From: an uncultured Prevotella sp.
Lineage (GTDB): Bacteria > Bacteroidota > Bacteroidia > Bacteroidales > Bacteroidaceae
DNA: 64,000 bases
NCBI GenBank assembly: GCA_963547405.1
Contig: CAUURC010000005.1
Coordinates: forward strand, 3,655 to 67,654
Direction: 5' to 3'
A program made the position numbers and the translations under genes. Below the pieces are notes generated by a model. The model had not been told where the DNA came from and did not search any database. It saw only the letters and a list, made by a program, of their open reading frames with translations. Positions 4,501-41,000 of the stretch are shown here, in pieces. Within the stretch, counting starts at the first letter, position 1. Each line of letters starts with the position of its first letter.

Positions 4501-7500
4501 ACTGCTCAAGCTTCATAAACTTATCCGTATGGAAGATATAGACACGTTGTGCATTGAGTGCATGCTTCATGTGATCTTCGTTACGTTTTGCCCTTTTATA
4601 AGCTTCCTTCTCATCAACCAGACGCAACTGACTGCCGATGGTCATATTGGTTGTATAACGTGACTCGGTATAGACACTAATCTTGTTGTTGTCGTCCCAT
4701 CCTTCATTCTTGTCTTCTTTACCGGGTTGTACGTCCTCAAAAATCTTGATGTCATCAAGCGGATTGGCAAAAGTAGGCATGCAGACGTGACCTGCCTTGA
4801 TTTCAACCGATCCGTTGAATTTGATGAGTCCTCCAAGCAGTTTAGCCCTAGCTTTCACCTTGCCATAGCACCACGCCGGATTGGGAAGTCCGCCTTTGAG
4901 GACGGCTCCTACCGTTGCGTCGACAATGGGCAATTTGCCTTTGAATATCCAAAGATTCAGCATCAGTCCCAGCTCACCATGCGCGTATGCGTAAATCTGA
5001 CCATTGGCATAGAAGCCATTTTTACCGGCATTACGACCATCGCCACATTTGGCTGCCTGCAGTTTCTTGAGTGCCAGATCAAAGCCGGCTATCATATCGA
5101 TTTCGGCATAACATACCACAGCATTCAGTGCCAGTTCGCCACTGACACTGGCGCCTAACATCACGCCACCTTTGGCTTTACCCTGAAATTCCCTAAACAT
5201 AGTCTCGGTCTGGCTTCGGCCGGGCGCAGCTTTGCTACCAAGGAACTCTTCTACCTTACTAGGCAATGGCGGCAGTTCTCCGTTGTCCGGAAGTTCATTG
5301 CCTAAACACAGATAGGCATCGGCCTCTATCTTGCAACGCAAATAGATAGGGCTGCTCGACTTACCCACTTGGAAATCAATGAAAGTAAAGATACAACGTT
5401 CCGCCGCTTTAGGTTTACCTAAATAGAAATGCCACTTGGTCGGGAAATCACCCTTATGGCCATCAGGTTTCATCGTAATTTTAAGCTCAATCGGAATCTT
5501 TACACCTGCCTTGGCTTTCACTCCACCTTCGGTCTTGTGTCCAGAATCATCGTCGTTCTTGGCATCAAAGCCCGCCATGTCAGCCAGTTTGTCCTCGTCG
5601 CTTATTTTGTCATAATCTACACCTGTGAAATCTTTAAACTTCTCTGTCATGTCCGCACTCGCGTCAATGGTGATGTTGAGTGTCAGCGATTTCTCTTCTT
5701 CCGTATTCACATAGGCTAATCGTGCCTTGGCTTTGATAATCGCGTCTTCCGGTTTAGTGGCATAGAGCGCGTAGACATCACCTTGGATGATGAAGTTTGA
5801 GAGTTTGTTACGCTCCTTATCATAAAGAACGATAAGCTCCATGGGGGCTGATACGAGATTGTCGGTGCCCATCGTGCTAATGGTCAGTCCTAACTTACCG
5901 CCATAACAGCCATACTTCGGATTCTTGCTAATATCGCTATTGATAAAGAAGCCGCCACTGATTCCATTGATCTGGACAGGAGGAATCTGTATGCCTGTCT
6001 TCATACTAACCGAAACATCAAATGCCGCATAAGAGTATGTGCCCTCATCGTCGCTTGATTTGGTGCGCACAGCTTCGCCCCAAGCTCCATCTACGGACAG
6101 CTTGAACAGGCCATTCATGTCGATGCTCAGGCCGCCGCTATAGCCATAACTCTTCTTCTCCTTGCCATTCACCGTCAGGGTGGTTTCTTTCATCTCGAAC
6201 GAGCCTGTAACATTGACGCCGCCGAAGCCCGACTTGATAATGGCTTTAGCAAACTGGCAGTGATCCCAGTCGAAGTCCAGATTATCAAGATCAACCTTTC
6301 CCCACAGCACGATACCCGCACCGGCCACAAGCTTGTCGTCCATGAAGCCGATACTGCCTTCGAGATTGAGACCTACAAACTTGCCATTATTGCGTATGCC
6401 TATGTCATCGAGCGTGAAAGTGAAAGAGCCTAATTTCTTTGTAGGTGAAGCCAGTTTCCACTGTCCTAAGCTGAAGAAGAAATCACCATTAGGTGACGCA
6501 TACTCATAAACAGAGTTCCCTTCAAGCTCATTTCTCGCATTCTCGATTTCTTTTTCTACATTGTCGTTCTTCTTCTCGCTGTTATTCTCGGCAGCTTTTA
6601 CCTTGTTACTTTCATTCTTACGAGCCTGCTCAACGAGTGACCGCTCTTTATCCGGTGTTCCGAAGTTGGCCAGTCGGAAGCCTGAGAACGCAACTTCAGG
6701 AACTTTCAAACCAATGAAGGTCTTGTCCTTGGTACCGTTAATCGATATTTTTCCACCCATGCACAATTCCACACGGGTTTTATTGTTTTCAGACTCTACG
6801 AAGAAGTAGGTCTGTTCCTTTTCCAGTGACATCGTAGCAAGGAAGGCGTCAAGATACAATTCCTTTTCCACCTGCTGCGTCTTAAACGTATATTTAAACG
6901 AACTGCCGTTGTCCTTCTGCGTTCTGGCAATCGCGCAGTCATAGCCTATCTTACCCCTCTCTTTTTTACCTTCCGTATTATTCTGTTTGAGTAGCGGTAC
7001 ACTAAACTGACCATTGAAGCCGGCTTTCTTGAAGTTATTCTGTAAGACATCGAAGTAGATTTCGTCTAACGATAACGACCAACCACCAACCTTACAAGTC
7101 CTCAAATCAACAATATTCTTAGCAGAGATGTTGAAGGTGATACCTGACTTGTCGAGATAAAGCCCCTTGACGCTTAGCGAAATGCGCTTGTCTTTATTCT
7201 TACCGCCTTTTCCACCCTTTTTATCGTCAGCTACTTCCACCACCGTCGGGAACTTCATCGTGAACTCGTCAAGATAGAATCCCTTCCAGACTTCTGCTGT
7301 TGCCCCCGTACTATTGAGTTTTTTAAGGTCATAGTCCTTTGGAAGCTTAAAGCCTGCCACATTGGATTTGGCCGAGTGGTCGAACGTTATACCCTTGCCC
7401 GTCGCAACGAAGGTATAGCCCGGGGCATCCTTCACCTGGAACGGATCGAGCGCTACCGTGGCTGTCCAGTCGTTCCAGCTGTACATGCGCGTGCGTACAT

Positions 7501-10027
7501 TTACTATATAAGGCGCATCAGATACAAAGTTACCGTTGCCGTCATCTTTGATCATGTCGGGGATGTTCATATCCATCTCCACGGCCAGACTGCTGATTGT
7601 ATCGGCATCCCACTGCAGATAACAACCGTCTTCGGCATTGGAAGGCTTCTTAGGAGCCTTGAAGGTGTAGTTGTATTGAGAATCAGGATCCTTGACCGTC
7701 ACGTCACTCAACAACGACAGACATCCCGCTTCAGCAAACAGTGCGTTGGGCCTGATGCACTGACGGGGCGCACCGAACACAAGCACGTCGGAAGAGGTGT
7801 AGTCGCTTTCAGGCATGACGAAGAAACCCATGACGTTCATCCAGGATGTATTGGCAGAGAACTCCGCTTTCATAATCTGAATGTCGAGCGGGGTCTTATT
7901 GATGTGCTTCGGCAACTTCAACGGCAACGTGAGCGGACCAAGTTCGGTATTGGCCATATTGTCAATCAACATACAGCCGTCCTGCAGCCACTTGTAGTAT
8001 TTAGCCAAGTCCTTATCCTTCTTCAGATAGTTTGTCAGATAACTACCATAAGTCTCGGTAGATCCCAAGAAGTCAAGCCCCCAGCTGTCGAACATGTCGT
8101 AAGGAATGAAGTTGCGGTCTACCTCGGCCGAAACAACCTTACCGTCGTATACCTGACGCTCCTTATTGATAAAGAGCGTATCGAACTTCACACTGATCTT
8201 AATCTTTGAATTCAGCGGCATCCAGGTCACGTATCCCGTTCCCTTGTAGCACTCCTTGCTTTTGCCTCCGATAGTTACGCTTATCTTCTCAATCTTCTCT
8301 ACCGTCAGGTCGAAGTCTCCCACCTTTACGGTCTTGCCCTTGAGGTTGTCATTAGAGAAGTCGCCCAACGTCTTGTCCTTGATGGCATCGGAAGCACCCG
8401 GATGACAATCGGGGAAGCGTTCGTCCAACGGTGCAAGGTAAGTAAGGTCGGCAAAGTTTCTCTCGTCTTTGCCAATCTCTATACCGTCCTTGCCGAACGG
8501 ATAGTTCACCGTGACACGCAGTCGGATCCGATCGGAGCTACCGACAGCCTTCTTCAGTTCATCCCACGGAATAGAATCGGTAAGTTCCGTAATGTCTTTC
8601 TTCACGTATAACGGCTTACTTGCCTTGAGTGAGTCTTCCGTCTGTCCCGTCTTCCACTTCCACACTTCAACCTTATAATTCAGGGTGAGCGTGTCGGATT
8701 CCGCAGCAAGGCCTTCAGACACGACAGATCGATTCCAAGCCACAGAGATAGGCTTGCCGGTCTGTAAGGTAAATGTATGAGCATCCTCACGATCGGGACG
8801 CGGATTGGTCAATACAGGCTGCGCAATATGATACTTGCATTTCAAAGTATCGGTAGAATCTTTCTGCGCCGTAGAGTCTGCTTCCTCCGCAGAGTCTGTT
8901 TGCTCCGAGTCTGTTTCCTCTGTTGTTGTTTCATTTTGGTCATAGTCGGAGCTTCCCTTTTGATTTGGAATTTCAAAAACAAGCAGTTCACTCTTTCCTT
9001 CATTCTGCAACAGTACGTAGTTGTTCTTTTCGCCCGTGTTTACCCCTATGGGTTCGGCCGTCACCTGACAAACGTACATGCCGGGAGAGCTGGCTATCCT
9101 CTTTATGATAGTCGTCGGCAGCATGCAATATGTACTGAGCAAGCCCGACCGTCGATAGACATCGGCCCCGTATTGTATGGCTTCATCGGCCGTCTGACCC
9201 AAGATGGCTTTCACGATACGCAACGAATAACGATACTGACGCTTTCCGGCACATGCCGTCATAGGCGGTAGCCATTCCAGTCTCGGTCCGAAAGGGTCGT
9301 ATTGGGTTTGCGGGAAAAATTCACCACGCCTTCTCCTATCAATATTGTTGGCGCCTTTTTTGGTCTTTTTTATACTTTCATAGGGCTTCTTCTTGTTAGG
9401 TACATGGATTTTCAAGAAATCATATTCTATAAGCGATGACGGCGCAAAGGATTGGATGAACCGTGGCGCTGAGCCCGAGTAGCAAACGTTGAACATACAA
9501 TGTCCCATGATGGGATCGCTGAGCACCTCAGGGTTACGACTGCCGGGATTATAACGATACGCCGTGATTTGTCCCGAGTAGGTGCCTTCGGGTAGCAGCG
9601 CGATGATGCCACGTGTGTAGTCCGTCAGCGTACCGCCGGTCATGCGAAGTTGGTTAACGCTGAGATGACGGAAAAGTTGCTTCTGCGCAACGATGTCCAA
9701 AACCAGTAACTTGTGAGGTAACAGAACGAGTGGCTGCTGAGGTAAAGCCTCGGGTGGCGTCGACAACGACAGTTTAGAATCCGGCGTCACCTGCTGAATC
9801 TCAAGACCCAGATAGACGTTGAGAACCTCATCGGTGACATTCTCTAAAGATATTTGGAAGTATTTGCCGGGATCGCCGATATAATTGAGCACGGCGGGAG
9901 GCATCGGGTCGTACTTAGGACTGACCATTATCTTCACCTGTCCCTGGCCCATAGCGTTGAACGTGAGGGCAACAAGAACGGTTAGGGTCGCGAGGACGCG
10001 CTTGAGGATGATATTCATTGCATTCAT
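1508..10027 (-). CDS. giant (2839 aa) secreted or envelope protein of unknown function
   Basis: A single uninterrupted 8.5-kb ORF. The N-terminal hydrophobic segment ILKRVLATLTVLVALTFNAMGQ looks like a signal peptide or anchor. Low-complexity linkers are present: acidic ETDSEQTDSAEEADSTAQKDSTD, charged EQKRQREEEKRKKEEERK, AKKKKKT and SSSSSSDDDD. The protein ends in ...KPIFY. I recognised no catalytic motif. Confidence 0.85.
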   Translation of the reverse strand: MNAMNIILKRVLATLTVLVALTFNAMGQGQVKIMVSPKYDPMPPAVLNYIGDPGKYFQISLENVTDEVLNVYLGLEIQQVTPDSKLSLSTPPEALPQQPLVLLPHKLLVLDIVAQKQLFRHLSVNQLRMTGGTLTDYTRGIIALLPEGTYSGQITAYRYNPGSRNPEVLSDPIMGHCMFNVCYSGSAPRFIQSFAPSSLIEYDFLKIHVPNKKKPYESIKKTKKGANNIDRRRRGEFFPQTQYDPFGPRLEWLPPMTACAGKRQYRYSLRIVKAILGQTADEAIQYGADVYRRSGLLSTYCMLPTTIIKRIASSPGMYVCQVTAEPIGVNTGEKNNYVLLQNEGKSELLVFEIPNQKGSSDYDQNETTTEETDSEQTDSAEEADSTAQKDSTDTLKCKYHIAQPVLTNPRPDREDAHTFTLQTGKPISVAWNRSVVSEGLAAESDTLTLNYKVEVWKWKTGQTEDSLKASKPLYVKKDITELTDSIPWDELKKAVGSSDRIRLRVTVNYPFGKDGIEIGKDERNFADLTYLAPLDERFPDCHPGASDAIKDKTLGDFSNDNLKGKTVKVGDFDLTVEKIEKISVTIGGKSKECYKGTGYVTWMPLNSKIKISVKFDTLFINKERQVYDGKVVSAEVDRNFIPYDMFDSWGLDFLGSTETYGSYLTNYLKKDKDLAKYYKWLQDGCMLIDNMANTELGPLTLPLKLPKHINKTPLDIQIMKAEFSANTSWMNVMGFFVMPESDYTSSDVLVFGAPRQCIRPNALFAEAGCLSLLSDVTVKDPDSQYNYTFKAPKKPSNAEDGCYLQWDADTISSLAVEMDMNIPDMIKDDGNGNFVSDAPYIVNVRTRMYSWNDWTATVALDPFQVKDAPGYTFVATGKGITFDHSAKSNVAGFKLPKDYDLKKLNSTGATAEVWKGFYLDEFTMKFPTVVEVADDKKGGKGGKNKDKRISLSVKGLYLDKSGITFNISAKNIVDLRTCKVGGWSLSLDEIYFDVLQNNFKKAGFNGQFSVPLLKQNNTEGKKERGKIGYDCAIARTQKDNGSSFKYTFKTQQVEKELYLDAFLATMSLEKEQTYFFVESENNKTRVELCMGGKISINGTKDKTFIGLKVPEVAFSGFRLANFGTPDKERSLVEQARKNESNKVKAAENNSEKKNDNVEKEIENARNELEGNSVYEYASPNGDFFFSLGQWKLASPTKKLGSFTFTLDDIGIRNNGKFVGLNLEGSIGFMDDKLVAGAGIVLWGKVDLDNLDFDWDHCQFAKAIIKSGFGGVNVTGSFEMKETTLTVNGKEKKSYGYSGGLSIDMNGLFKLSVDGAWGEAVRTKSSDDEGTYSYAAFDVSVSMKTGIQIPPVQINGISGGFFINSDISKNPKYGCYGGKLGLTISTMGTDNLVSAPMELIVLYDKERNKLSNFIIQGDVYALYATKPEDAIIKAKARLAYVNTEEEKSLTLNITIDASADMTEKFKDFTGVDYDKISDEDKLADMAGFDAKNDDDSGHKTEGGVKAKAGVKIPIELKITMKPDGHKGDFPTKWHFYLGKPKAAERCIFTFIDFQVGKSSSPIYLRCKIEADAYLCLGNELPDNGELPPLPSKVEEFLGSKAAPGRSQTETMFREFQGKAKGGVMLGASVSGELALNAVVCYAEIDMIAGFDLALKKLQAAKCGDGRNAGKNGFYANGQIYAYAHGELGLMLNLWIFKGKLPIVDATVGAVLKGGLPNPAWCYGKVKARAKLLGGLIKFNGSVEIKAGHVCMPTFANPLDDIKIFEDVQPGKEDKNEGWDDNNKISVYTESRYTTNMTIGSQLRLVDEKEAYKRAKRNEDHMKHALNAQRVYIFHTDKFMKLEQFEDKKDKSPSKTYQLSSKTSDHESFSLAGIGRLLPNKFYKLTLTGYAKELVNGYEVDPIFNDSLSNYKDVHRAWRDTSIVYFRTGDLPTDIICDVKLARPAESSKSAWRNSLRKDAYLEEAAKPYLSLCGSRADKWDDKHEVQVDLEIYNSSTGKWEIPDQKMVAIGCKFDGAFYPMKNGKAVGLDAAKAQKQKEIDDYVAEQKRQREEEKRKKEEERKNQRTVEDEEAEARRKRWIEEGFSYKDPVTGKVVHVKGTKDSTQTSKDGRVVHGYIDPKTGKFVWANGKDSTQQVSRGHAQMIVGHSVSTHEVKQAGWKYIGKEVNENMEAVSVVADDPANTNSQLKELVIVQPDSIAPSKTSRAKKKKKTAAVQTSKKDYLPAPPDENRMESLRMTVVGELATIAPKIPQKYVGLDKQMGKDVDNVRVKPIEGIKPGPLDGYGSSSSSSDDDDPIDVPEMPSVDTVKVVSYAGSICKNVPVEERIERGESHEYIIWQLANNASFAKFIKPDKYYRLIFNQVNKAQQKEYLDKVNVAMKAFAFQQQRQNTGSGGSQKSNNQNSDSQLDLGKYMNDYRKELSGKIGLDTISKLIRTFHVALKEDTYSTYLYGVIFRTSDYYNFAATEGKGTRYEYYDAIGGEKGTYCNIHSINYTGNSKSFAYNDNPIMNGVWQMDPYFGMIYWGNYGTVSSCHMPWSLLCKQDILSTPALSIKFPPCSRRELSRYDGVYNLDSPYSDQLIGHRLRNQIIPKVRYNSYEPDEKHSWFTKLTAEYEADYATANIMMVTLRAMRNKMLQYLGKYATHLESEYAWGKAGKGNRGKVRNRMNDFRVFCGGMDPKYYDLVIKDIEGDTELSSQEKMDKKYNMMLLHAQNINFNLLNDKDQALWMNYFTPRNYNRYHYIPSDVAIPYIQMVYIYGINVADDTRRPMADRRRGGYPERQWVVNNIDKDISRSIVSYDFNLFKVSGYNLKTNEFDVRPATRSANTYILRNWRRKPIFY

Positions 10028-10049
10028 AGTTATCGGTTCTTACGGCGTT

Positions 10050-11765
10050 TTACTTCTGTTTCTTGGAGGCTTTACGCTTGAGTTCCAGCAGCGTGAAGGT
10101 ATAGTTGTAGCTTAGGTTGCAGGTTAGGTCGTAGCTGGAGTACTTCATGACATCGACGATGTTCACGTCGTTGTAACGGCTATAGCCTGCGCTCAATGAG
10201 AATGAGTGGACTTTCTTCAGCGTGTAACCGGTATAGAGGTCAACGCCCATCGACCAGTTCTTGTTCTGGCCGGAGATGTGATTGCGGCAAACAGACAGCG
10301 TCAGCGAAGCCGTGAGGTTCTTATCGGCCAGAAAAGAACGGCCGGCTGTACCGGATATGACGTCTGAACTGTATTTACGCTCATAGCCTTCTGATGTCTG
10401 GTGGCTGTAGTTCAGCCCGAAATCGGTCTGGATGCGCTCCACGTTCACGCCATAGCCTGCGCCATAAGAGATCGTCTTCACGTCGCTCTGGCCCGTCGAA
10501 AAACGGTTCAAGTCCTTATTCTGTGTGTAACCACCCGTAACACTTACGGTGTGGCTGTTGCCACCGGCCTCGAAGGAGTAGCTCGGGGCAACGTGTAGGT
10601 TGTGCATGATGCGGTTCACGCGCGTCGTATCGTTCACCGGCATGGTGCCCGCACATTGCTGCTGAAGGTAGCCGCTGTAGCCGGCCGTGACATTCAGATT
10701 GCTCGACAGGTTCACAACAGCATTGGCCGAGTAAACATAGCCACGTGTTGTATAGAGTTGTTTGTTGTTGAGGTTGTCGTTCTGATAGGCGAAATTACCG
10801 GAGAACATGACCTTGCGCGTGGGCGAACCGCTCACCGAAATCCCCAAACTCTGATAGTTATTGCTGATATAACTCAGTCCAAGAGACATGTAGTCGGGCT
10901 GAACCAGCTTATAGGAAACGGAAGTAGAGAAGCGGCCCAGAGACAGGTTCAGGTTCACATCGCCCGCAAAGCGGTATAGCGAACTATAGCGGGCGTCGAA
11001 GATTTTTTCCCATTTGTCAATCTCTTTCGAATGGATACGTTCGGATTCGAGATCGGTTGAGAAGATCGACGCGGCCACATTGGCCGTCAGCGACATCCAC
11101 TTGGCCACGGAGGTGTGTCCGCGAAGCGCTACCGACAGATTCTCCTTGGCTTCAGTCGTGCGCCGCCATTCCGTAGCAAGAGAGCTAAGACGGTCGTAAC
11201 CTTTGAAGACATAGAGGTCGAGATAGTGGCGACTGGAACCATAACCAACTTTAAAGCCCCAGCCTAAACGGCTGTATTGGGGTTTGCGTGCGTTGGGATC
11301 CAGTGGATTATCATTGATGGCATGGCGCAGACGACCGTAGAACATGCCGAAGCGTAGCTGCTGAGCCTTGTATTCAAGTCCGGCTCCTTCGAAAGGGATA
11401 TTATAAATGTAAGGCGACATCGACATGACGTGCGTGCCTAAATGGAGCGTCCAGTTCTTATATGTAGGACTGATATTAAAGGAGAAGCGAGGATAGCTAA
11501 AGTTAATGTCGCTGTTGGAATAATAGAAAGAAAAAGGCATATTGAACCCATAGAAGCTAAGATTGAGGTTGGCATATACCGAATTGCTCAACGGAGAGGT
11601 CAGACCACTGCTCGCTGAATGGTAGGAATTTTGCGTACCTACGGCACCCGTCATAATCAGAGGGTCGCTCTTGGCTATCTGGGAGATATCCTGCGACCGT
11701 ACCGTGGCAGGAACCAGGCTGATGAAAACGGCTACAAGGCCGCTGTGGAATAGGGTTGCTTTCAT
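10050..11765 (-). CDS. predicted outer-membrane beta-barrel protein (571 aa)
   Basis: Signal peptide MKATLFHSGLVAVFISLVPATVRSQ. The sequence is rich in Y/S/N/G with alternating hydrophobic strands throughout (e.g. NLNLSFYGFNMPFSFYYS, LTASLTLSV, SFSLSAGYSRY). It ends 22 bp upstream of the giant gene. Confidence 0.75.
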   Translation of the reverse strand: MKATLFHSGLVAVFISLVPATVRSQDISQIAKSDPLIMTGAVGTQNSYHSASSGLTSPLSNSVYANLNLSFYGFNMPFSFYYSNSDINFSYPRFSFNISPTYKNWTLHLGTHVMSMSPYIYNIPFEGAGLEYKAQQLRFGMFYGRLRHAINDNPLDPNARKPQYSRLGWGFKVGYGSSRHYLDLYVFKGYDRLSSLATEWRRTTEAKENLSVALRGHTSVAKWMSLTANVAASIFSTDLESERIHSKEIDKWEKIFDARYSSLYRFAGDVNLNLSLGRFSTSVSYKLVQPDYMSLGLSYISNNYQSLGISVSGSPTRKVMFSGNFAYQNDNLNNKQLYTTRGYVYSANAVVNLSSNLNVTAGYSGYLQQQCAGTMPVNDTTRVNRIMHNLHVAPSYSFEAGGNSHTVSVTGGYTQNKDLNRFSTGQSDVKTISYGAGYGVNVERIQTDFGLNYSHQTSEGYERKYSSDVISGTAGRSFLADKNLTASLTLSVCRNHISGQNKNWSMGVDLYTGYTLKKVHSFSLSAGYSRYNDVNIVDVMKYSSYDLTCNLSYNYTFTLLELKRKASKKQK

Positions 11766-11808
11766 CGCTTCGAAGGGTTAGATTGACTAAAGGTGATTAA
11801 ACCGGATG

Positions 11809-11836
11809 ATGTCCCATGCCGGATTGCATGGGACAT
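11809..11836 (-). terminator. perfect 10-bp stem hairpin in the 89-bp gap between the adhesin and barrel genes; possible partial terminator or processing site
   Basis: atgtcccatg (11809-11818) pairs with catgggacat (11827-11836) around an 8-nt loop. On the minus strand it is followed by only a weak U-rich stretch. Confidence 0.3.
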
Positions 11837-11854
11837 TTCCATTAGAGAGAATGA

Positions 11855-14800
11855 TTATCTGACTACCTTCTGAGAGAGGGTGCGTCCATCTGTCGTCACG
11901 ACAGTTACGATATATACGCCCAAAGGCAGTCGCGTCAGATCTGTTTCATTGAAGAGTTGCGTGTTACCGTTGACACTGCTCACACGGAAGCTCTTTACCT
12001 GGAGTCCGTTGAAGCGGAGTCGTCCGGCGACCACCGTGATTTCGGAAGACTCAGCGGTTATCTGTCCGACAGAAGTGGTACCGCCGGCTTTCATCACGAC
12101 CGGTTTTGCCAGACTGCCGGCTATCTTATCAAACTTCATATCACCCGCGAGCAGGCGGTATTCACCCGTCACTTTATCGTAGAGTTTAAAGCTGATGGTT
12201 TCGCCGCCCTTGCCATGCACGGTAATGAAGTAGAGACCTTCCACCAAGCGACCTTCGCCGCGACACTCATCGCCTACAAAAGCACCCACGGTATAGTCGG
12301 AGGCACGTGTCAAATCGGGCACTTCGGCAATGATAGTCATGTTATCGGCAAAGGTCGCGCTGTTATATGTCCATATACTGGCTTCAGCCGGGCCGTTGCG
12401 CTTGGCGGGTGACACGGCAGCTGGTTGTGGAAGCATACTTTCTCCAAAGAAATACAGTTGATCCATACCCTGGCTCAAATCGGGATTATAGAACATATAC
12501 CCCTCGCCGGCCTTCAAGGTGGTAAGATCGCCTGTCCATCCGGAACCATTGTATTCGGCAAAACCGCTGTCCTTCGATACGATGCGTGAACCCGTTACAA
12601 TAATTCCGTCGAGCATGATGCTGCTTAGCGGTCGGTCATACTGGTAAGGATAGGCTATCCAGCTCCAAGGCTGTTTCACATAGATATGGCAGCCTTCGGT
12701 CGGGAGATAGTCGATGGTCGACGTCGCGGCCGCGACATTCACCGGAGACACGCCGTCCTTGAGGCGTACCTTATAGCACTTGTTCTTCTCCAGCCCGATC
12801 AGCGTTCCGAAGTAGCCATACTGCGCGTCGTTATAGAGCAGAGCATTGTCGGAGCGTATCTCAAGCAGCTTGTCACCATAGATTTGCTGCAGACGGGACT
12901 TGTCGACAGGAGCGGTGAAATAAGTGCGCCACTGCCATCCGGCAGCGTCATTAAGTTCCTGACCGATAATGATGGTGGCCTGACCCATTGACGTGCCGTT
13001 ATACTGTATGTCGATCGTACCCTTGCCCACCGAACGGGGCTTGATGGTCCATTTCAGACCCGTAGCGTCGGCCGCGGTAACCTCCGTAAACTTCCATTCG
13101 GCAGGGAAAGTGGTGTCGTTGTTGGTTATAACGACGTTCAACCTTGCAGGATCAAACGGGGCGGTAGCCGGAACAGGCGTCAGCTTCAATTCCTGCGCGG
13201 TGCGGTGGCCCATGATTATGTTGTCACAGGTAAAGCCCGTCAGGCTCTGCATGACGTTGACGGTAAACGTCTTCGTGAGTGTCCGTTCTGTATTATAAGG
13301 TATGGTGGAACCCGTATTCAACCGTGTCTCCTTATCAGTATATGTGACGGTAAGATGAGCCGTGCCTATACCATTGGCCAAAACATAATAATTTGCTGTT
13401 GGATTAACATTTACCTCTACGATATCGGGATCATCCGAAGTAAACTGATATTTGTCGGCTGCCGGTGCGGTCGGCGTAAAGGCGAAGTTACCTAAAACCG
13501 CAGTAGAAACATCCTGATAGCCGTTGCCATTCGGAAGCCAGTCGATATTGAGCGGATCCTTCGTAATGTTAAGGTTCGTAACGACAGGTTGCACATGAAC
13601 CTTGAACGAACAAGAAATGCCATTGTCGGTCGATGCCTGAACTACAGCCTCTCCCTCTTCTACGGCTTTGATTTGTCCGTTATTCTCTATTCGAAGCGAA
13701 GAACCTTGAGTTACCGTAAACTTCGGGCCACTATAGGCCGCGTCTTCAGGATCGGGATAGACATTAGCCTTCAGAAGATTAGTAATGTCATTACCTTTAT
13801 ATACATAGAGGTCTGATAAATGGGCCTTCAAGGCTTTCAGGCCCTGTACAATGTTGACGCCAAACGTCTCCTTGAGTGTCCTTTCTGTATTGTAAGGAAT
13901 CATGGAACCCGTATTCAAACGCGTCTCCTTGTCGGTGTAGGTGACGGTAAGATTGGCTCTGCCTGTACCGTTGGCAACAATATTATAATTTGTCGTAGGA
14001 CTAATGCCTACCACCTCTACGATATTGGGAGCATCCGAAGTGAGCTGATATTTGTCGGCAACCAATGCGGTCGGCGCAAAAGCGAAGTTTCCTAAAACCT
14101 CCGTAGAGATATTCTGATAGGCGTTGCCATTCGGATTCCAGTCAATATCGAGCGGATTCTTCGTAACGCTAAGGTTCGTAACGACAGGTTGCACATGAAC
14201 CTTGAACGAACAGGATACGTCGTTGTCGGCCGATGCCTGAACTACAGCCTCTCCCTCTTCTACGGCTTTGACTTGTCCGTTATTCTCTATCCGAAGCGAA
14301 GAGCCTTGAATAACCTTGAACTTCAAATTATTATAAACAAAATCTTCAGGATCGGGATAGACATTAGCCTTCAGTAGGTTGGTGATGTCATTACCTTTAT
14401 ATACATAGAGGTCTGACAAATGAGCCTTCAAGCCTTTCAGGCCCTGTACGATGTTGACGCCAAACGTCTCCTTGAGTGTCCTTTCTGTATTGTAAGGAAT
14501 CGTGGAACCCGTATTCAAACGCGTCTCCTTGTCGGTGTAGGTGACGGTAAGATTGGCTCTGCCTGTACCGTTGGCAACAATATTATAATTTGTCGTAGGA
14601 CTAATGCCTACCACCTCTACGATATTGGGAGCATCCGAAGTGAGCTGATATTTGTCGGCAACCAATGCGGTCGGCGCAAAAGCGAAGTTTCCTAAAACCT
14701 CCGTAGAGATATTCTGATAGGCGTTGCCATTCGGATTCCAGTCAATATCGAGCGGATTCTTCGTAACGCTAAGGCTCGTAACGACAGGTTGCACATGAAC

Positions 14801-16045
14801 CTTGAACGAACAATAAATACTGTCGCTGAAAGTAGAAGCCTCGATTACGGCATCTCCTTCTTCTACGGCTTTGACTTGTTCGTTGTTTACTATCTGAAGC
14901 GAAGAGCCTTGAATAACCCTGAATTTCAATTTATTATAGACCGATCCTGCAGGCTCGGGGTAGACATTGGCCTTCAGCAGATTGGTGATGTTATTACCTT
15001 TATATACATAGAGGTCTGACAAATGGGTCTTCAAGGCTGTTGCCCGTTGCTGAACCTTCACTTTCAGCGTGGCCGAGTAGTTGCCGTAAGTAGCCCTTAT
15101 CGTATAATTACCCACCTTTTTAGGTATCCACTCGCCGTTGACCGCCGAAAATACAAGGGCGGAAGGATCGCTGGGAGTCAGCTGAAGCGGCACGGTAACA
15201 CCCTCGGGAAGTATCTTAAAAGCATTGCGCACATAATAGGTCAGGGTAGAGACGTCGTTCAGATTGACAACAACGCCATTGCCATAGCCGGGAGCCAGCG
15301 TCAAACCCGTGACAGTTTGGCGCTCTACGATAACCCGTGCTTCAGCAAGTTGCTCCTTAAGCCAAAGCTGATAATATACCTTCATGATCGCGGAACCCTC
15401 ATTTTCCTTGATACCTTTCAACAGATGGTAGTCCGTAATAGTGAAATAATCACGATGATAGCCTTGAAAGCCTGCGTTGATAGGTTTGTTGGCATTGGCC
15501 GGCGTCAGCTTTACGTAGTTATTCAAATCGATTGTCTGCCCCACGTTCACGCGAATGGGATCGGGTGAAAGCTCAAACTTCTTCGGCTCTATGAATGTCA
15601 GATGATGACGATTACCGGCCGGCCCTCCGGGGGGTGTGAATCCGTTCTGGTATTTATAGGTAGTCGTTCCCACGACAATATACTCCATCGACTGCGTATA
15701 GTTACTATTATACGGCTCCACCATCAGTCTGAACTCCACCTTCTTACCGTTATCAGCCGCTGTTCCCTCGATACGAAGCGGAAAATAGCAGACTTCACCG
15801 GGTACGGAGGGGAAATACCCCCCCTCAGCTTTCACCTCACCACGGCATTCACCATTAATGAAAGCGCCCAACGTGTAACGCCAGATAAAGTTGCCATTCA
15901 TAACGGCATGACCCGAACCATCTACAAGATCGGCATAAACAACACACTGACCACTATACTGACCATACTGGTATGACCAACCGGCATACGCTCCTAAATG
16001 CGTCAGGAGCAGGAGCAAGGTTATGAGTGCAAATAATTTTTTCAT
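11855..16045 (-). CDS. Ig-like (Big_2-type) repeat surface adhesin with T9SS C-terminal sorting domain (1396 aa)
   Basis: Signal peptide MKKLFALITLLLLLTHLGAYA. Three to four roughly 200-aa repeats carry Big_2-like segments (KANVYPEP...VKAVEEG.AV..AS....SCSFKVHV). The C-terminus ...LPLGVYIVTVVTTDGRTLSQKVVR resembles a T9SS CTD. A related GAF.(N)GECRGEG module occurs near both the N- and C-termini. Confidence 0.85.
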   Translation of the reverse strand: MKKLFALITLLLLLTHLGAYAGWSYQYGQYSGQCVVYADLVDGSGHAVMNGNFIWRYTLGAFINGECRGEVKAEGGYFPSVPGEVCYFPLRIEGTAADNGKKVEFRLMVEPYNSNYTQSMEYIVVGTTTYKYQNGFTPPGGPAGNRHHLTFIEPKKFELSPDPIRVNVGQTIDLNNYVKLTPANANKPINAGFQGYHRDYFTITDYHLLKGIKENEGSAIMKVYYQLWLKEQLAEARVIVERQTVTGLTLAPGYGNGVVVNLNDVSTLTYYVRNAFKILPEGVTVPLQLTPSDPSALVFSAVNGEWIPKKVGNYTIRATYGNYSATLKVKVQQRATALKTHLSDLYVYKGNNITNLLKANVYPEPAGSVYNKLKFRVIQGSSLQIVNNEQVKAVEEGDAVIEASTFSDSIYCSFKVHVQPVVTSLSVTKNPLDIDWNPNGNAYQNISTEVLGNFAFAPTALVADKYQLTSDAPNIVEVVGISPTTNYNIVANGTGRANLTVTYTDKETRLNTGSTIPYNTERTLKETFGVNIVQGLKGLKAHLSDLYVYKGNDITNLLKANVYPDPEDFVYNNLKFKVIQGSSLRIENNGQVKAVEEGEAVVQASADNDVSCSFKVHVQPVVTNLSVTKNPLDIDWNPNGNAYQNISTEVLGNFAFAPTALVADKYQLTSDAPNIVEVVGISPTTNYNIVANGTGRANLTVTYTDKETRLNTGSMIPYNTERTLKETFGVNIVQGLKALKAHLSDLYVYKGNDITNLLKANVYPDPEDAAYSGPKFTVTQGSSLRIENNGQIKAVEEGEAVVQASTDNGISCSFKVHVQPVVTNLNITKDPLNIDWLPNGNGYQDVSTAVLGNFAFTPTAPAADKYQFTSDDPDIVEVNVNPTANYYVLANGIGTAHLTVTYTDKETRLNTGSTIPYNTERTLTKTFTVNVMQSLTGFTCDNIIMGHRTAQELKLTPVPATAPFDPARLNVVITNNDTTFPAEWKFTEVTAADATGLKWTIKPRSVGKGTIDIQYNGTSMGQATIIIGQELNDAAGWQWRTYFTAPVDKSRLQQIYGDKLLEIRSDNALLYNDAQYGYFGTLIGLEKNKCYKVRLKDGVSPVNVAAATSTIDYLPTEGCHIYVKQPWSWIAYPYQYDRPLSSIMLDGIIVTGSRIVSKDSGFAEYNGSGWTGDLTTLKAGEGYMFYNPDLSQGMDQLYFFGESMLPQPAAVSPAKRNGPAEASIWTYNSATFADNMTIIAEVPDLTRASDYTVGAFVGDECRGEGRLVEGLYFITVHGKGGETISFKLYDKVTGEYRLLAGDMKFDKIAGSLAKPVVMKAGGTTSVGQITAESSEITVVAGRLRFNGLQVKSFRVSSVNGNTQLFNETDLTRLPLGVYIVTVVTTDGRTLSQKVVR
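13241..15040 (-). repeat. 3 x 600-bp in-frame tandem repeat inside the adhesin gene
   Basis: Shadow ORFs recur with an exact 600-bp period (13589/14189/14789 and 13820/14420/15023). About 13845-14210 and about 14445-14810 are nearly identical; several 60-nt lines match exactly. The other half of each unit is more diverged. Confidence 0.9.
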
Positions 16046-36187: not shown

Positions 36188-36328
36188 TCGTTGGCAAACA
36201 GCAAGGCTATGATCCGCAATAACGTATAAGATAATCGTATTCTCTTTGCTCTGAACGGTTGTATCGTTCGGATTATGGTAGTGCAAACCACGACAATAAT
36301 TATAATATCAAAGGATTAAGCATCATGC

Positions 36329-36505
36329 TCAATCCTTTGATTGTCTTTCTTCCAACTTCTTTCCTAACCATATTCCCAATGGAATGAATATTAGTATTCC
36401 ACTCAAGAAGCTAATCATTGTTTCTTTTAAATCTCGAAAACCCAAAAGAAAGGGAATTAAGGTTATTAGTATCGCTAATAACAATATTATAATATAGCGC
36501 TTCAT
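36329..36505 (-). CDS. possible small two-TM membrane protein (58 aa, below the ORF-track cutoff)
   Basis: My own translation is MKRYIIILLLAILITLIPFLLGFRDLKETMISFLSGILIFIPLGIWLGKKLEERQSKD. It has two hydrophobic helices. There is no other support. Confidence 0.25.
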   Translation of the reverse strand: MKRYIIILLLAILITLIPFLLGFRDLKETMISFLSGILIFIPLGIWLGKKLEERQSKD

Positions 36506-36966
36506 TTGCGATCTGATTTTTATACGATAGGTAAATTTTGCTGTAAATTTATATCAAATTCTGTGTTTTCCAAATATTTCTTTTAAAAGATGCAAGAATA
36601 CTACGAAAATTAGATTTACTTAAGAAATGAAAGCTCGTCAACTCTCTTTTTCATGTTAGATGATCAAATCTTAACGGTCATTTGTGAGTGAATAAAATTT
36701 GATAAATTATTCTTTTATTGAGTGTATGAAGGCAACAGAACGAGATTCAAGGGAGTAGATTATGCGCAAAGAGATGGGGGCAGGGCGGTGATTCATCACG
36801 TTCCGTTTCGGCCTTTTTCCGTTTTCACGCCACATGCCACGCAATAGAAATGTAATGTTTCTATCATAAAAACGGCCTCTAAAAATTCTTCAACCAGAGA
36901 GAAAAACAGAGATAAAACTGCGTTTTCTACGCTAACGGCAAACCATTTTTATCGTATTCCGATGTC

Positions 36967-37067
36967 AAAGCATAGCTTTTGCACGGCCAAAGCAGCCCTT
37001 TTAGGAGGTGAAAGCATAGCTTTTGGCATGTAAAAGGGCTGCTTTCATCGGGCAAAAGCTATGCTTT
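36967..37067. repeat. long imperfect inverted repeat built from AAAGC-ATA-GCTTT-type units (structured intergenic element, copy 1)
   Basis: Left arm 36967-37003 and right arm 37031-37067 pair as a 16-bp stem, a 6-nt bubble and a 15-bp stem. A third aaagcatagctttt unit sits in the loop. Confidence 0.7.
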
Positions 37068-37259
37068 TAGCCCGTTTTTTCAGTGTTTTTGCCCCCTTTT
37101 TGTGACGCCCGGGCATCGTGTTTCTTCACAAACAGCTGATTATCAGCTGCTTGCCTACTTTTCGTCAACTATCAAAATGCTTGGCTTATTTGCGAAAACT
37201 TTTTTCCTGACGCAAAATAAAAGAGCGGTTTGTACGATTTTTTCACAACGAATTTAACT

Positions 37260-37432
37260 AAAAAACGCGCGCAAAAGACTACTTTATGCTCTAACCACCC
37301 GCCTGCCCGCCCGTTCACCGACATGATGATTACCGACATAGCTTTTTATCTATCGCTTGATAAATTTTATCTGTTGTGTCCTTTTCCGATAAGCCCTACC
37401 TTTGCATCAGAAAAAGAAACATTATTTATAAT
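37260..37432 (+). repeat. left copy of a 173-bp direct repeat (duplicated dps promoter region)
   Basis: It aligns with 44718-44890 with 9 mismatches, and the 3' part of about 95 bp is identical. It contains a TAccTTTG -7 box at 37397-37404. Confidence 0.9.
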
Positions 37433-37563
37433 TTATTTCTTTGTTTGTAATCTATCTTTCACTATATTTGTCAGCAGAAACAACTTTTACCTTAAATAAT
37501 CAGACACAGAGAAGGCGTTGTTTTTTAGTAAAAAATAATCTAATCAATTTATATTTTTAGCTT

Positions 37564-37998
37564 ATGAAAAAATATTGTTTATCCTTTTATCTATTATTAT
37601 TACCATTCATTTCTGTTGCACAGAATCAGATTGGGTACGGTTACGATTCGGGCGGCAACCGAGTAAAACGTAAGATAATCATGACTTCTCCCAAAGGGAT
37701 GGCAAAACCGGAGGCATTTCATTCGCAAAATCAAATATACGTAGAAGCACTCCGTGAACATACAGTATCAATCTATCCCAACCCAACCGAAGGAGATTTG
37801 AAGGTTCGTATCCTGAGTTTGACAGACTCGGATAAATGTGTATGGTGGATATATACTAATCAAGGAAAACAGATCTTGACGGGTAAGGTTGTCAATGGAT
37901 GTGTAGATATAAATATCAACAATCAGCCTTCTGGTATCTATCTTTTGAAAATAACCATTAATAATCAGTCTACAACATGGAAAATCATCAAGAAATAA
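37564..37998 (+). CDS. small secreted protein: signal peptide, a single YD/RHS-type repeat and a T9SS C-terminal sorting domain
   Basis: Signal peptide MKKYCLSFYLLLLPFISVAQ. GYGYDSGGNRVKR matches the YDxxGN(R) RHS repeat. The CTD motifs are SIYPNPTEGDLKV, SGIYLLKI and WKIIKK. Its stop lies 5 nt before the Rhs ATG. Confidence 0.75.
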   Translation: MKKYCLSFYLLLLPFISVAQNQIGYGYDSGGNRVKRKIIMTSPKGMAKPEAFHSQNQIYVEALREHTVSIYPNPTEGDLKVRILSLTDSDKCVWWIYTNQGKQILTGKVVNGCVDININNQPSGIYLLKITINNQSTTWKIIKK

Positions 37999-38003
37999 AA
38001 CGT

Positions 38004-41000
38004 ATGAGAATCTATCTTTGTGGCGTATTGCTTGCATTGTCAAATGTTTCACAAACAATAGTTGCTTCTGCATCCCAAGTTTCTACGGCGCTACATATGC
38101 CTGATGAAAAGAATGCGGTCGGTAGTCCAGAAGGAGAACTCTCCGTATCAAATTCTGGAGCAGCCATATATAATCTGAAAATAAAGGTGCCTAATGGAGG
38201 CCCACTGACACCGCAAATTTGTTTGTCATATAATAGCCAATCTTACGGATATGGCCTTGCAGGGTTTGGAGTAAATATCACAGGGCTTTCCGCGATAACA
38301 AGAGGTGGACATAATCTGTTTGATGAGGGACGAAGGGACGGTGTCACATATACGGCCAATGATAATTACTTTCTTGATGGGAAACGATTGATTTTACAAT
38401 CGGGTACAGCGGGACAAGACGGTGCTATCTATACTATGGAAGGTAATCCTTTTACAAAAGTAATCATACATGGAACCTACACAAGCAGTTGGATAAGTAC
38501 CTGGTTTGAAGTAAGGACAAGCGACGGTAAGGTTTATCAGTATGGCAAGACTCTTAATTCAAAGCTTGGTTATAAAAATAAAGAAGGAGATCTACGTATA
38601 GCCTCATGGCATATTAACAAGGTTGAAGACAAATATGGTAACTACATAAACTATGATTATACGGTCAGCGACCTTAACGTTAGGCCCCATGAGATAACCT
38701 ATGGAATGAATAGCGTGAAAAATCGGGGGATAGTCAATAAAATTCATTTTGACTATCAATCGATAGGAACGAATTCACGGCCGTTTACGATAGAAGACCA
38801 GCAGGGGCGTATGGATGTATGCCTGTCATCCATCACAAGTTCATGCAACAATTCCGTATATCGAACGTACACTTTGGATTATGACGGTAGATTATCGAGT
38901 AAGATTGATGATTGGACTCTTCTTGTAAAAGTAGTGGAAAAGAATGGCAAAGGAGAAGCTTTACCTCCAGTCATATTGAATTGGAAAATTCCTACAGACT
39001 CATACATTCGAACCTCCAAGATTGATGTGTCAACGTCCGATACCAGAAGTTACATAGAAGAGGGCGATAAGGCATTTCTTGCCGTGGATTTAACGGGAGA
39101 TGGTATTAGTGATATTGTTAGAATTAGTCAGGTAAAAGTTACGGATTATGCATGGTACAATGGAAAGTACCAGCATGATGAAACCTATGTATACATTAGT
39201 AGAAGTAAGGTCAGCCCGGTAGGAAATGTAACCTATGAAACTCCAATGATCTTTTCATTACCTGCTTCTTTCTCAATGGGAGATTTAGATAGGGTGCTAG
39301 GTGGAACATCTGCAATGGATTTTGATGGCGACGGCTATAATGACTTGGTAATATCATATCATAATCAAGCTAAAGACTACTGGAACGAAGAGGATTTCTA
39401 TTTTATTTTAGGAGCTGATGTCGTCGCTGGTCGGACTGGGGCAGCAACCCCCGTTCCCATACAACTTCAAACGTCTGATGACAAACCGCTATTTACTGTT
39501 TTAGATACGGATGGGAATGGAAAAGATGGTATCATTTGTGTGGAACGGGAGAAGAAGGATGGTTTTTATCCCTGCTCAATAGCAAAACTTAAAGAAGGAA
39601 CACAACTGGATATAACAAAACTTAAACTCGATCTTGCGTACGATCCTGTAAAGATATTTGCCGGTGACTATAATAATGATGGCTTGGCTGACTTGATTTT
39701 GTTATCCGATAATGATTATAAAATCTATTATAACAATGGAGGAACTCCTGAGACGCCAAAGTTTATGGAAGCAAATACGAAGAGAGGGACAGACTTCTGT
39801 GACCATTGGAGAATGCAGCAAGGAGACTTTGATGGTGACGGATTGATAGATTTTGTTTATAATGTTTCTGGCGAATCCCACCTGTGGATAGCCCACAACA
39901 ATGGTGATGGAACTTTTACTTCTACAAAGACTATGAATATTGGTGTCGCAGATGGGTTCAGTGGAAAGGATAACAAGAGATTCTCTATATCCGTATGTGA
40001 TATAAACCACGATGGCCGGTCAGATGTAATGGTCGCAAAGTCAGAATATAAGAAAGGCCCCTTTCCTGGCTATAAGACGAAATATGTCAATACACCCGTC
40101 AAATGGCTGATCTCCACTGGTAGAACTTTCCAGTTAGCCAATAGCTATACAAAAGATCGGGAAGAAGACGCACTGGAGTGTACTATCTTCATGGGGGATT
40201 TTGATGGTGACGGATATATGGAGCTTGCCAATTATGGGAGCAAGCTAAATAGTACGGATGATACGTTTGACGAGAAAATTAATGTGTATAAAATCGGAGA
40301 TGACATGTCTTCTTTCGGGAAGATAGTAAGCATAACGGACGGAATGGACAACACCAGTAGAATCCAATATGCCTATACTACCAATCCGATTGTCTACAAA
40401 CGGACACTTCCACAGCAATATCCGGTCAATACTTACACACTTCCTTTGTCTGTCGTGGCAAAGGTGACAGCTGACAATGGCGCCGTAGGAAGCCAAACAA
40501 CGAATTATTTTTACGAAGACTTGCGCATCCACATTGCCGGCAAGGGAATGCTTGGGTTCAATACGTTGACCAAAGAAAATATGACCATGGGAACGACAGA
40601 GAAGATGAACGTTGTCAAGTGGGATGAGAAACACTGGATTCCTGTAGAGTTGAAGGTAACGAATACGATAGGCAGCAGTTCGTCTGTAGTAGTCACAAAA
40701 ACCACCATTGCGGAGCAAGGGAAGACAAACTATTTTGCGTATGTGTCTCAAAAGGACATTACCGACTTAGATGGTAATACCGCCACCACGATTACACATT
40801 ACGATGTGGAAAAGGGTGTCGTTACGGACGAGACTGTCAAAAATGGTGGAGAAGACATGTATAAGAAAGTTTCCTATTCTGGGTTCCAGAATAAGGCCGA
40901 TGTCTGGTTGCCTACCATATTGACGATGACGCAGAAACATAAGGATGATTCGAGTCCTTTTACAACCGTTACGACCTATGGCTATGACAGTAAGGGTAAT

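Follow-up and report, generated by a model that had tools for sequence, protein, structure and literature searches.

This locus raises the question of how a large Rhs toxin that bears a Sec signal and no secretion domain of its own could be routed to the cell surface, and whether the small gene in front of it has a part in that. In the window (the whole stretch of 64,000 nucleotides (nt) from an uncultured Prevotella sp. that was analysed), the Rhs gene is preceded on the same strand by a gene for a protein of 144 amino acids (aa), here called the mini-gene and the mini-protein, which carries a C-terminal domain (CTD) for sorting through type IX secretion (the T9SS). The mini-gene and the Rhs gene are a conserved unit with near-obligate pairing, and a functional partnership of the two products is strongly supported. 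That the mini-protein is a dedicated T9SS-targeting adaptor or tether partner of the downstream Rhs protein, as a sequence-only reading of the locus had proposed, has in our judgement about an even chance of being correct. The features of the mini-gene are as follows.

37564..37998, + strand: mini-gene, encoding the 144-aa hairpin-linker-CTD protein, with the TAA stop (37996-37998) counted in
37564..37620, + strand: signal peptide, aa 1-19, MKKYCLSFYLLLLPFISVA followed by Q; helix over residues 4-19 in the AlphaFold2 (AF2) model
37627..37680, + strand: YD-type beta-hairpin, aa 22-39, IGYGYDSGGNRVKRKIIM, the proposed Rhs-docking element
37681..37737, + strand: variable disordered linker, aa 40-58, with a predicted local distance difference test score (pLDDT) <50 at residues 40-54
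37738..37995, + strand: type A T9SS C-terminal sorting domain, aa 59-144, from TIGR04183, PF18962, AF2 and Foldseek
37440-37443 (TTTG) and 37463-37470 (TATATTTG), + strand: candidate Bacteroidetes-type promoter, found by eye, ~95 nt before the mini-gene ATG

The open reading frame (ORF) translates to MKKYCLSFYLLLLPFISVAQNQIGYGYDSGGNRVKRKIIM...TTWKIIKK. The signal peptides of the mini-protein and of the Rhs protein were judged from sequence, and in the mini-protein cleavage by signal peptidase I was predicted before Q20, which was at least 90% conserved in the family as part of a nearly invariant AQ pair (positions 19-20). This fits the Q-rule of the Bacteroidetes, by which cleavage occurs before Gln, and the hairpin would then begin two residues from the mature N-terminus. 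The AF2 model, based on an alignment of 32 homologues, consisted of the N-terminal helix, strands at residues 22-27 and 33-39 (pLDDT ~60), a disordered stretch at 40-54 and the CTD. The linker differed between family members in both length and sequence, and it is here that a PorU-type site for CTD cleavage and attachment to glycan/lipopolysaccharide (LPS) would be expected. The candidate promoter was matched by eye to the Bacteroides sigma-A consensus, which has TTTG at -33 and TAnnTTTG at -7.

Profile searches placed the CTD well above the curated cut-offs of both families tried, with 51.4 bits for TIGR04183 (cut-off 23) and 44 bits for PF18962 (cut-off 27) over residues 70-144 of the mini-protein, and a CTD profile match was obtained in 32/32 aligned relatives. 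The domain ends at residue 144/144 and is thus at the extreme C-terminus. Eight strands were predicted within residues 59-143 and the pLDDT over the CTD was 85-96. The best match of the model in the PDB by Foldseek was the CTD of NucA in the F. johnsoniae translocon (8glk_D, template modelling (TM) score 0.87, root mean square deviation 1.9 Å), and the mirolase CTD (8qb1) was matched as well. Residues K140 and K143 were at least 90% conserved, and type A CTDs are described as having a nearly invariant lysine close to the C-terminus (PMC10994853). The profiles, the predicted structure and our reading of the sequence together confirm the signal peptide and the canonical sorting domain that had been claimed for the 144-aa product, and the CTD is confirmed by profile and model as a genuine type A T9SS CTD. 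Related Prevotella possess an active T9SS, and in Prevotella intermedia its cargo is cleaved in the coil ahead of the CTD and glycosylated at the C-terminus (PMC11969387).

A survey seeded with the mini-protein, using one genome per species, identified a relative in at least 159 species, and 80 loci were fetched. The hosts included Prevotella, Hoylesella, Segatella, Paraprevotella and Muribaculaceae, Dysgonomonas and metagenome-assembled genomes (MAGs) of Bacteroides/Phocaeicola, and Prolixibacteraceae, Saccharicrinis, Paludibacteraceae and Vicingaceae. A homologue of the window Rhs was found by tblastn directly downstream and on the same strand in 75/80 loci, and two further loci had it upstream, giving a linked Rhs in 77/80. 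Identity of the mini-linked Rhs to that of the window fell to ~25%, and the gaps between the two genes were typically -22 to +50 nt. Among the loci counted outside the 77, one (L061) had too little DNA downstream of the mini-gene and another (L029) had a frameshifted mini-gene and no Rhs downstream. One of the 75 (L073) has a 387-aa transposase-like ORF (10828-11991) lying between the mini-gene and the Rhs gene.

The reverse survey was seeded on metagenome contigs with the SpvB domain of the Rhs protein and yielded 80 loci, 78 of them with enough upstream DNA. The scan profile was made from 5 closer sequences since a 13-sequence alignment was too diverse, and the reverse test therefore covers Rhs proteins that are at least ~40% identical in the SpvB domain. 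A hairpin-CTD gene was located just upstream in 76/78 of these loci. In the other two (L120 and L121) the gene preceding the Rhs gene encodes a CTD-less protein of 97 aa in which a signal peptide is combined with a YD hairpin and a zinc-ribbon-like segment of the C2HC kind, so that a hairpin gene stood upstream of the Rhs gene in 78/78. With the hairpin at 78/78 and the CTD at 76/78, the hairpin looks tied to the Rhs protein and the CTD looks like a routing element. Pairing was thus conserved in both directions of the survey, and the absence of conservation that the sequence-only reading had named as a refutation of its proposal was not observed. Identities between mini-proteins also co-varied with identities between Rhs shells (Mantel r 0.61, with 0/999 permutations as high), while the toxin end was far more divergent.

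The CTD-less hairpin gene of L121 is located at 3513-3806, directly before the Rhs gene. The product of the gene preceding it has Sel1 repeats and a C-terminal end that appeared CTD-like by eye; at this end Pfam returned a weak match to FlgD_ig and no CTD match.

The downstream gene and its neighbour have the following features.

38004..44147, + strand: Rhs polymorphic toxin gene, 2047 aa from ATG 38004
38004..38072, + strand: Rhs signal peptide, aa 1-23, MRIYLCGVLLALSNVSQTIVASA, read from sequence
38151..38675, + strand: SpvB / TcB-N-like domain, aa 50-224, PF03534 29.2 bits (cut-off 22)
39312..40034, + strand: FG-GAP beta-propeller, aa ~437-677, PF13517 77.9 bits and PF01839 49.4 bits
40956..42923, + strand: RHS/YD repeat shell, aa ~985-1640, PF05593 95.7 bits and TIGR01643 54 bits
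42978..43217, + strand: RHS repeat-associated core, aa 1659-1738, ...DPVLGRFFSPD...NNPLKYTDHSGE, TIGR03696 56.4 bits (cut-off 32.5)
43236..44144, + strand: variable C-terminal region, aa 1745-2047, in which a hydrophobic, glycine-rich stretch precedes a ~150-aa domain, the presumed toxin
44147..44695, + strand: candidate immunity lipoprotein, 182 aa, with the lipobox LTSC and a borderline DUF3997 match

The stop codon of the mini-gene lies 5 nt before ATG 38004, from which the Rhs protein begins MRIYLCGVLLALS... in signal-peptide-like fashion, and the spacing given by the sequence-only reading, which proposed translational coupling, holds with this start. An alternative in-frame ATG is present at 37977-37979, within the conserved Thr-Trp codons of the mini-gene (ACATGG), and would make the two genes overlap by 22 nt. 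An ATG at the same position in the Rhs frame was found in 17/80 genome loci, and in 4/15 relatives with this arrangement the overlapping ATG was the sole ATG ahead of the hydrophobic core of the Rhs signal peptide, which indicates that the genes overlap in those loci. The true Rhs start in the window is ambiguous between the two candidates, and both make the genes abut. A lipoprotein signal on the Rhs protein was also considered and was rejected, as the Cys at position 6 is too near the N-terminus.

By sequence, the Rhs protein matched the solved cocoons of Rhs proteins from type VI secretion (the T6SS), namely 8h8a, 7q97, 8qja and Tse5. The SpvB, FG-GAP, RHS-repeat and core families all scored above their cut-offs. 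Profile scans detected neither type of CTD in it, nor a PAAR domain, and the families PAAR, VgrG, Hcp, Tss and TcA were absent from the Rhs protein and from the neighbouring ORFs scanned, which comprised most of those in the window of at least 120 aa. The earlier statement that the Rhs protein lacks a CTD, a PAAR domain and any T6SS context therefore stands for the Rhs protein and the scanned ORFs. With neither CTD nor PAAR, the protein is, as judged from its domains, a fused TcB/TcC-like cocoon toxin bearing just a Sec signal. Its C-terminal 303 aa had no family match in Pfam, and identity to other Rhs proteins of the family was ~18% in this region versus ~27% in the shell. The start of the immunity candidate shares 1 nt with the stop codon of the Rhs gene (TAATG), and the Rhs C-terminus and this ORF probably constitute a new toxin/immunity pair.

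The feature that connects the mini-protein to the Rhs protein at the level of sequence is the hairpin. In an alignment of 57 representatives (27-60% identical to the window mini-protein) G31 was invariant and Y27, D28, N32, R33 and R36 were each at least 90% conserved, and the family motif Y-x-YD-xx-GNR-xx-R was nearly invariant, making the hairpin the most conserved element of the mini-protein. A hairpin profile covering a 22-residue segment of 72 distinct sequences found canonical YD repeats as its best matches in the Rhs protein (TVTMGYDAAGN, independent E-value 2.8e-5). The reverse comparison with the RHS repeat family PF05593 gave weak matches in 10/32 relatives (best E 0.021) and an E-value of 0.0017 for P0183, a longer variant described below. 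There is one YD motif in the 144 aa and no tandem array of the kind that forms a shell, for which reason we describe the mini-protein as carrying one YD-like hairpin and do not class it with the RHS-repeat proteins. Of the single RHS-type repeat claimed earlier, the YD motif within a predicted hairpin was retained and assignment to the Pfam repeat was not.

The alternative that the mini-gene is a decayed gene fragment, a functionless remnant of an older RHS/CTD gene, had also been raised by the sequence-only reading. It could draw on the shortness of the mini-protein, on its single YD motif and on occasional broken copies such as the frameshifted L029 and L055, which has an internal deletion. 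Opposed to it is the size and uniformity of the family. A word-seeded search returned 76 homologues of the mini-protein, nearly all of 142-153 aa and full length. In an exhaustive profile search of 1.84 billion representatives, at least 260 clusters (50% identity) reached E<=1e-30 and 5,003 reached E<=1e-10, and in a second profile search at least 2,231 clusters (90% identity) reached E<=1e-10 among the 8,000 candidates scored. The ratio of nonsynonymous to synonymous substitution rates (dN/dS), estimated from ten phylogenetically independent pairs, was 0.21 for the hairpin, 0.28 for the linker, 0.26 for the CTD and 0.55 for the signal peptide, and the mini-gene is under purifying selection. 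The hundreds of full-length clusters of ~144 aa, the constraint on hairpin, linker and CTD, the invariant motifs of the hairpin, and a position upstream of the Rhs gene that is conserved across Bacteroidales, Marinilabiliales and Flavobacteriales refute decay, and we regard its probability as negligible.

The locus most closely related to that of the window is L055 (Prevotella illustrans A2931, 10001-10240), the Rhs protein of which is 89% identical. The deletion in it leaves residues 1-47 of the mini-protein, and its Rhs begins at about residue 236, which gives the appearance of an inactivated copy.

Longer variants were found in which further domains precede the hairpin-CTD module. P0213 (815 aa) has LRR_5 and Big_2 ahead of the module, and in L042 a 428-aa protein made of LRR_5 and the hairpin-CTD module ends 4 nt before the Rhs gene. 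A PPC-like domain is located ahead of the module in P0155, P0183 and P0199. P0213, P0183 and P0199 lie on short contigs with the next gene 19-25 nt downstream, and in L082 the gene after a long variant weakly matches Rhs N-termini and may encode an Rhs protein. One to three PPC domains also precede SpvB in several Rhs proteins that follow a mini-gene, as in L032 (PF04151 46.7 bits), L054, L062, L066, L059 and L041, and the N-terminal domain of P0155 is homologous to the N-terminal PPC repeats of Rhs proteins (BLASTP E 2e-6). The presence of PPC, a putative binding domain, on either partner is what a single complex would predict, and the distribution of LRR and PPC domains over the hairpin-CTD protein or the Rhs protein suggests, on domain content, that the two proteins belong to one complex.

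A contact between hairpin and Rhs, co-export and surface anchoring are inferred from these observations, and the anatomy of the mini-protein, with an N-terminal hairpin, a disordered linker and a CTD, fits a tether. Under the adaptor reading, both proteins would enter the periplasm via Sec, and the processed mini-protein would then present the hairpin at its extreme N-terminus, followed by a flexible spacer of ~20-30 residues and the type A CTD. The hairpin would bind the SpvB/FG-GAP/RHS cocoon, most simply by extending the YD sheet with further strands at an exposed edge. In Tc toxins, TcB and TcC build one continuous YD shell from two chains, which sets a precedent for a trans-supplied YD element. 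The CTD would engage PorV/SprA and bring the mini-protein, and with it the Rhs protein, to the outside. At the surface, cleavage within the linker would remove the CTD, the C-terminus so formed would be joined to glycan/LPS, and the anchored hairpin of ~25-45 residues that remains would keep the toxin cocoon attached to the cell or to vesicles. T9SS signals must be C-terminal, and in solved Rhs and Tc cocoons the C-terminal toxin is packed inside the shell; the signal would be supplied in trans because the Rhs C-terminus is an encapsulated toxin. In its full form, as the first trans-acting T9SS signal, in which an anchored hairpin clips to the edge of the Rhs shell and the T9SS exports and/or displays a CTD-less cocoon of ~230 kDa, the proposal is tentative and in our estimation has appreciably less than an even chance.

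Several observations weigh against the adaptor reading or against parts of it. The lumen of SprA is probably narrower than a folded BC-type cocoon, which casts doubt on the export of a complex that has already folded. No case of trans (piggyback) export by the T9SS was found in the literature searched, and we know of none. The window mini-protein had no match to PF05593 at E<=0.1, and only strand 1 and the turn of the hairpin are shell-repeat-like, strand 2 (R-[IV]-[KT]-R-E-[IV]) being family-specific. The hairpin profile run over 41 aligned Rhs proteins gave a generic likeness near residues 1262-1285 and no 'missing' repeat or docking site. No T9SS components were detected among the scanned ORFs of the 64-kb window, and presence of a T9SS in the host is assumed from the CTD and from relatives. 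Within the genome survey, the two loci with an upstream Rhs (L063 and L067, from a Vicingaceae MAG and a Bacteroidales MAG) have the order Rhs, immunity/small gene(s), mini-gene, with no hairpin-CTD gene before the Rhs gene, and L038 has a mini-gene without an Rhs within 10 kb.

The width of the cocoon would be no obstacle if the mini-protein were a tether only, with the Rhs protein leaving by vesicles, lysis or another route and the T9SS-exported, LPS-anchored mini-protein capturing the cocoon outside, as this avoids passing ~230 kDa through SprA. The same anatomy and pairing data fit, and a YD-repeat protein is included in a table of proteins from outer membrane vesicles of Riemerella (PMC11180376). 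No other export route is evident for a Sec-dependent Rhs protein of 2,000 aa, however, and L121 keeps the hairpin without a CTD and hence without a surface anchor, so that we consider this explanation unlikely. About equally unlikely is that the mini-protein is an independent small T9SS cargo that is merely co-regulated with the toxin, such as a PorA-like ligand or a self-recognition or decoy peptide in a toxin operon. PorA is a small CTD protein that acts as a regulator (PMC7712824), and TANFOR toxins also have CTD proteins as neighbours with no known contact (PMC7073777), but an independent cargo would leave unexplained the YD-type nature of the conserved element, its near one-to-one tie to SpvB/RHS genes across orders and the swapping of PPC domains between the partners.

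A role inside the cell envelope would account for other features of the hairpin, which mimics a shell repeat, is the most conserved element and persists without a CTD in L120 and L121. The mini-protein could on that basis be a periplasmic assembly factor, the hairpin of which seeds or caps the YD spiral or blocks early release of the toxin, with the CTD serving for disposal afterwards. The retention of the CTD in 76/78 Rhs-seeded loci under purifying selection argues against this, as does the occurrence of LRR and PPC domains on the same protein, which suggests an extracellular role, and a factor of this kind is not known to be needed for the folding of T6SS and Tc cocoons. We rate an assembly factor as less probable still than a tether alone or an independent cargo.

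If the adaptor reading is correct, it would bear on how T9SS cargo is defined. To our knowledge all known T9SS cargo carries its sorting domain in cis; a CTD lent to a partner would widen that definition, and genome-wide cargo lists based on the CTD would be incomplete. It would also give the T9SS a role in the delivery of interbacterial or host-directed toxins, which has so far been hypothesised (PMC7073777, PMC8125069, PMC6775972), and would explain how SpvB-RHS toxins with a Sec signal, which are very common in Bacteroidota of the gut, mouth and rumen, arrive at the surface. In the full form of the proposal, Prevotella and many other Bacteroidota would possess a toxin system that depends on the T9SS and on contact, and in which either partner could optionally carry LRR or PPC domains for targeting. 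The hosts include the tractable Segatella copri and, with membership judged from size and context, P. gingivalis ATCC 33277/381.

Genes around the locus are housekeeping genes and genes of the SusC/SusD type. A spacer of ~1.37 kb without a credible ORF (36190-37560) separates an HlyIII/TrhA-like gene from the mini-gene. Within it lies an imperfect inverted repeat of 37 nt (36967-37003 / 37031-37067), in which another of 26 nt is nested; Rfam returned nothing in this spacer. Elsewhere in the window, three consecutive large ORFs (2839, 571 and 1396 aa) on the - strand at 1508-16045 form an uncharacterised giant-protein locus, and no significant Pfam or NCBIfam family was found for them.

CTD genes beside Rhs genes have been noted before. 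In P. gingivalis, Moradali et al. 2019 described PGN_1817, 'a T9SS-cargo protein', upstream of the largest Rhs gene, PGN_1818, found the locus induced together with T9SS genes and suggested a mechanistic link (PMC6775972). A later listing gives PGN_1817 as a hypothetical CTD protein of 145 aa that strain W83 lacks (PMC7712824). From this size and its position it may belong to the family, and no P. gingivalis or Apibacter entries were named among the 120 best matches of the profile search. Steele and Moran 2021 reported that most Apibacter rhs genes, which are of the SpvB/TcdB type and without PAAR, adjoin genes with a type A sorting domain and are probably T9SS-associated (PMC8125069), and for TANFOR toxins a comparable observation by Jana et al. 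2020 led to the hypothesis that they depend on the T9SS (PMC7073777). Like the window, the P. gingivalis and Apibacter loci have a CTD gene beside an Rhs gene, a small one in P. gingivalis, and the papers report adjacency only. The sequence-only reading knew of no description of such an arrangement; the adjacency and a suggested link to the T9SS were in fact published (PMC6775972, PMC8125069), while the YD hairpin, the family, the near-obligate pairing and the adaptor mechanism are neither described nor addressed by experiment in the literature searched.

Comparison with type A CTD cargo such as RgpB, NucA, mirolase and PorA shows that the mini-protein has the same signal peptide, pre-CTD linker, beta-sandwich CTD and C-terminal lysine. 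It differs in that its passenger is ~40 residues (hairpin and spacer) with no enzyme or adhesin domain, and in having a large CTD-less toxin as its partner. PorA itself has a folded lectin-like N-terminal domain and acts in PorXY-SigP signalling (PMC7712824). TANFOR toxins resemble the Rhs protein in having a signal peptide, no CTD and neighbourhoods enriched in T9SS CTD proteins (PMC7073777), but the TANFOR scaffold is not RHS and the neighbours are large SprB/Fn3/PKD proteins rather than a minimal hairpin-CTD protein.

In T6SS Rhs effectors a cocoon is linked to the secretion machine by a small adaptor encoded next to it (PAAR/VgrG, Eag), and a similar linkage is proposed here. The mini-protein and the Rhs protein differ from these in having Sec signals, so that they would meet in the periplasm, and in the absence of PAAR, VgrG and Eag. 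Export of a signal-less protein by a bound partner, as in hitchhiking on the twin-arginine translocation (Tat) pathway or in complexes of the type II secretion system (T2SS), would be a further parallel, with the export by a partner only inferred here. The Tc BC cocoon shares with the Rhs protein the whole succession of SpvB N-terminal domain, FG-GAP propeller, RHS shell, core and variable C-terminal toxin. In the window, B and C are fused in a single Rhs protein and, unlike in the Tc toxin, the piece supplied in trans would be a single T9SS-tagged hairpin and not half of the shell.

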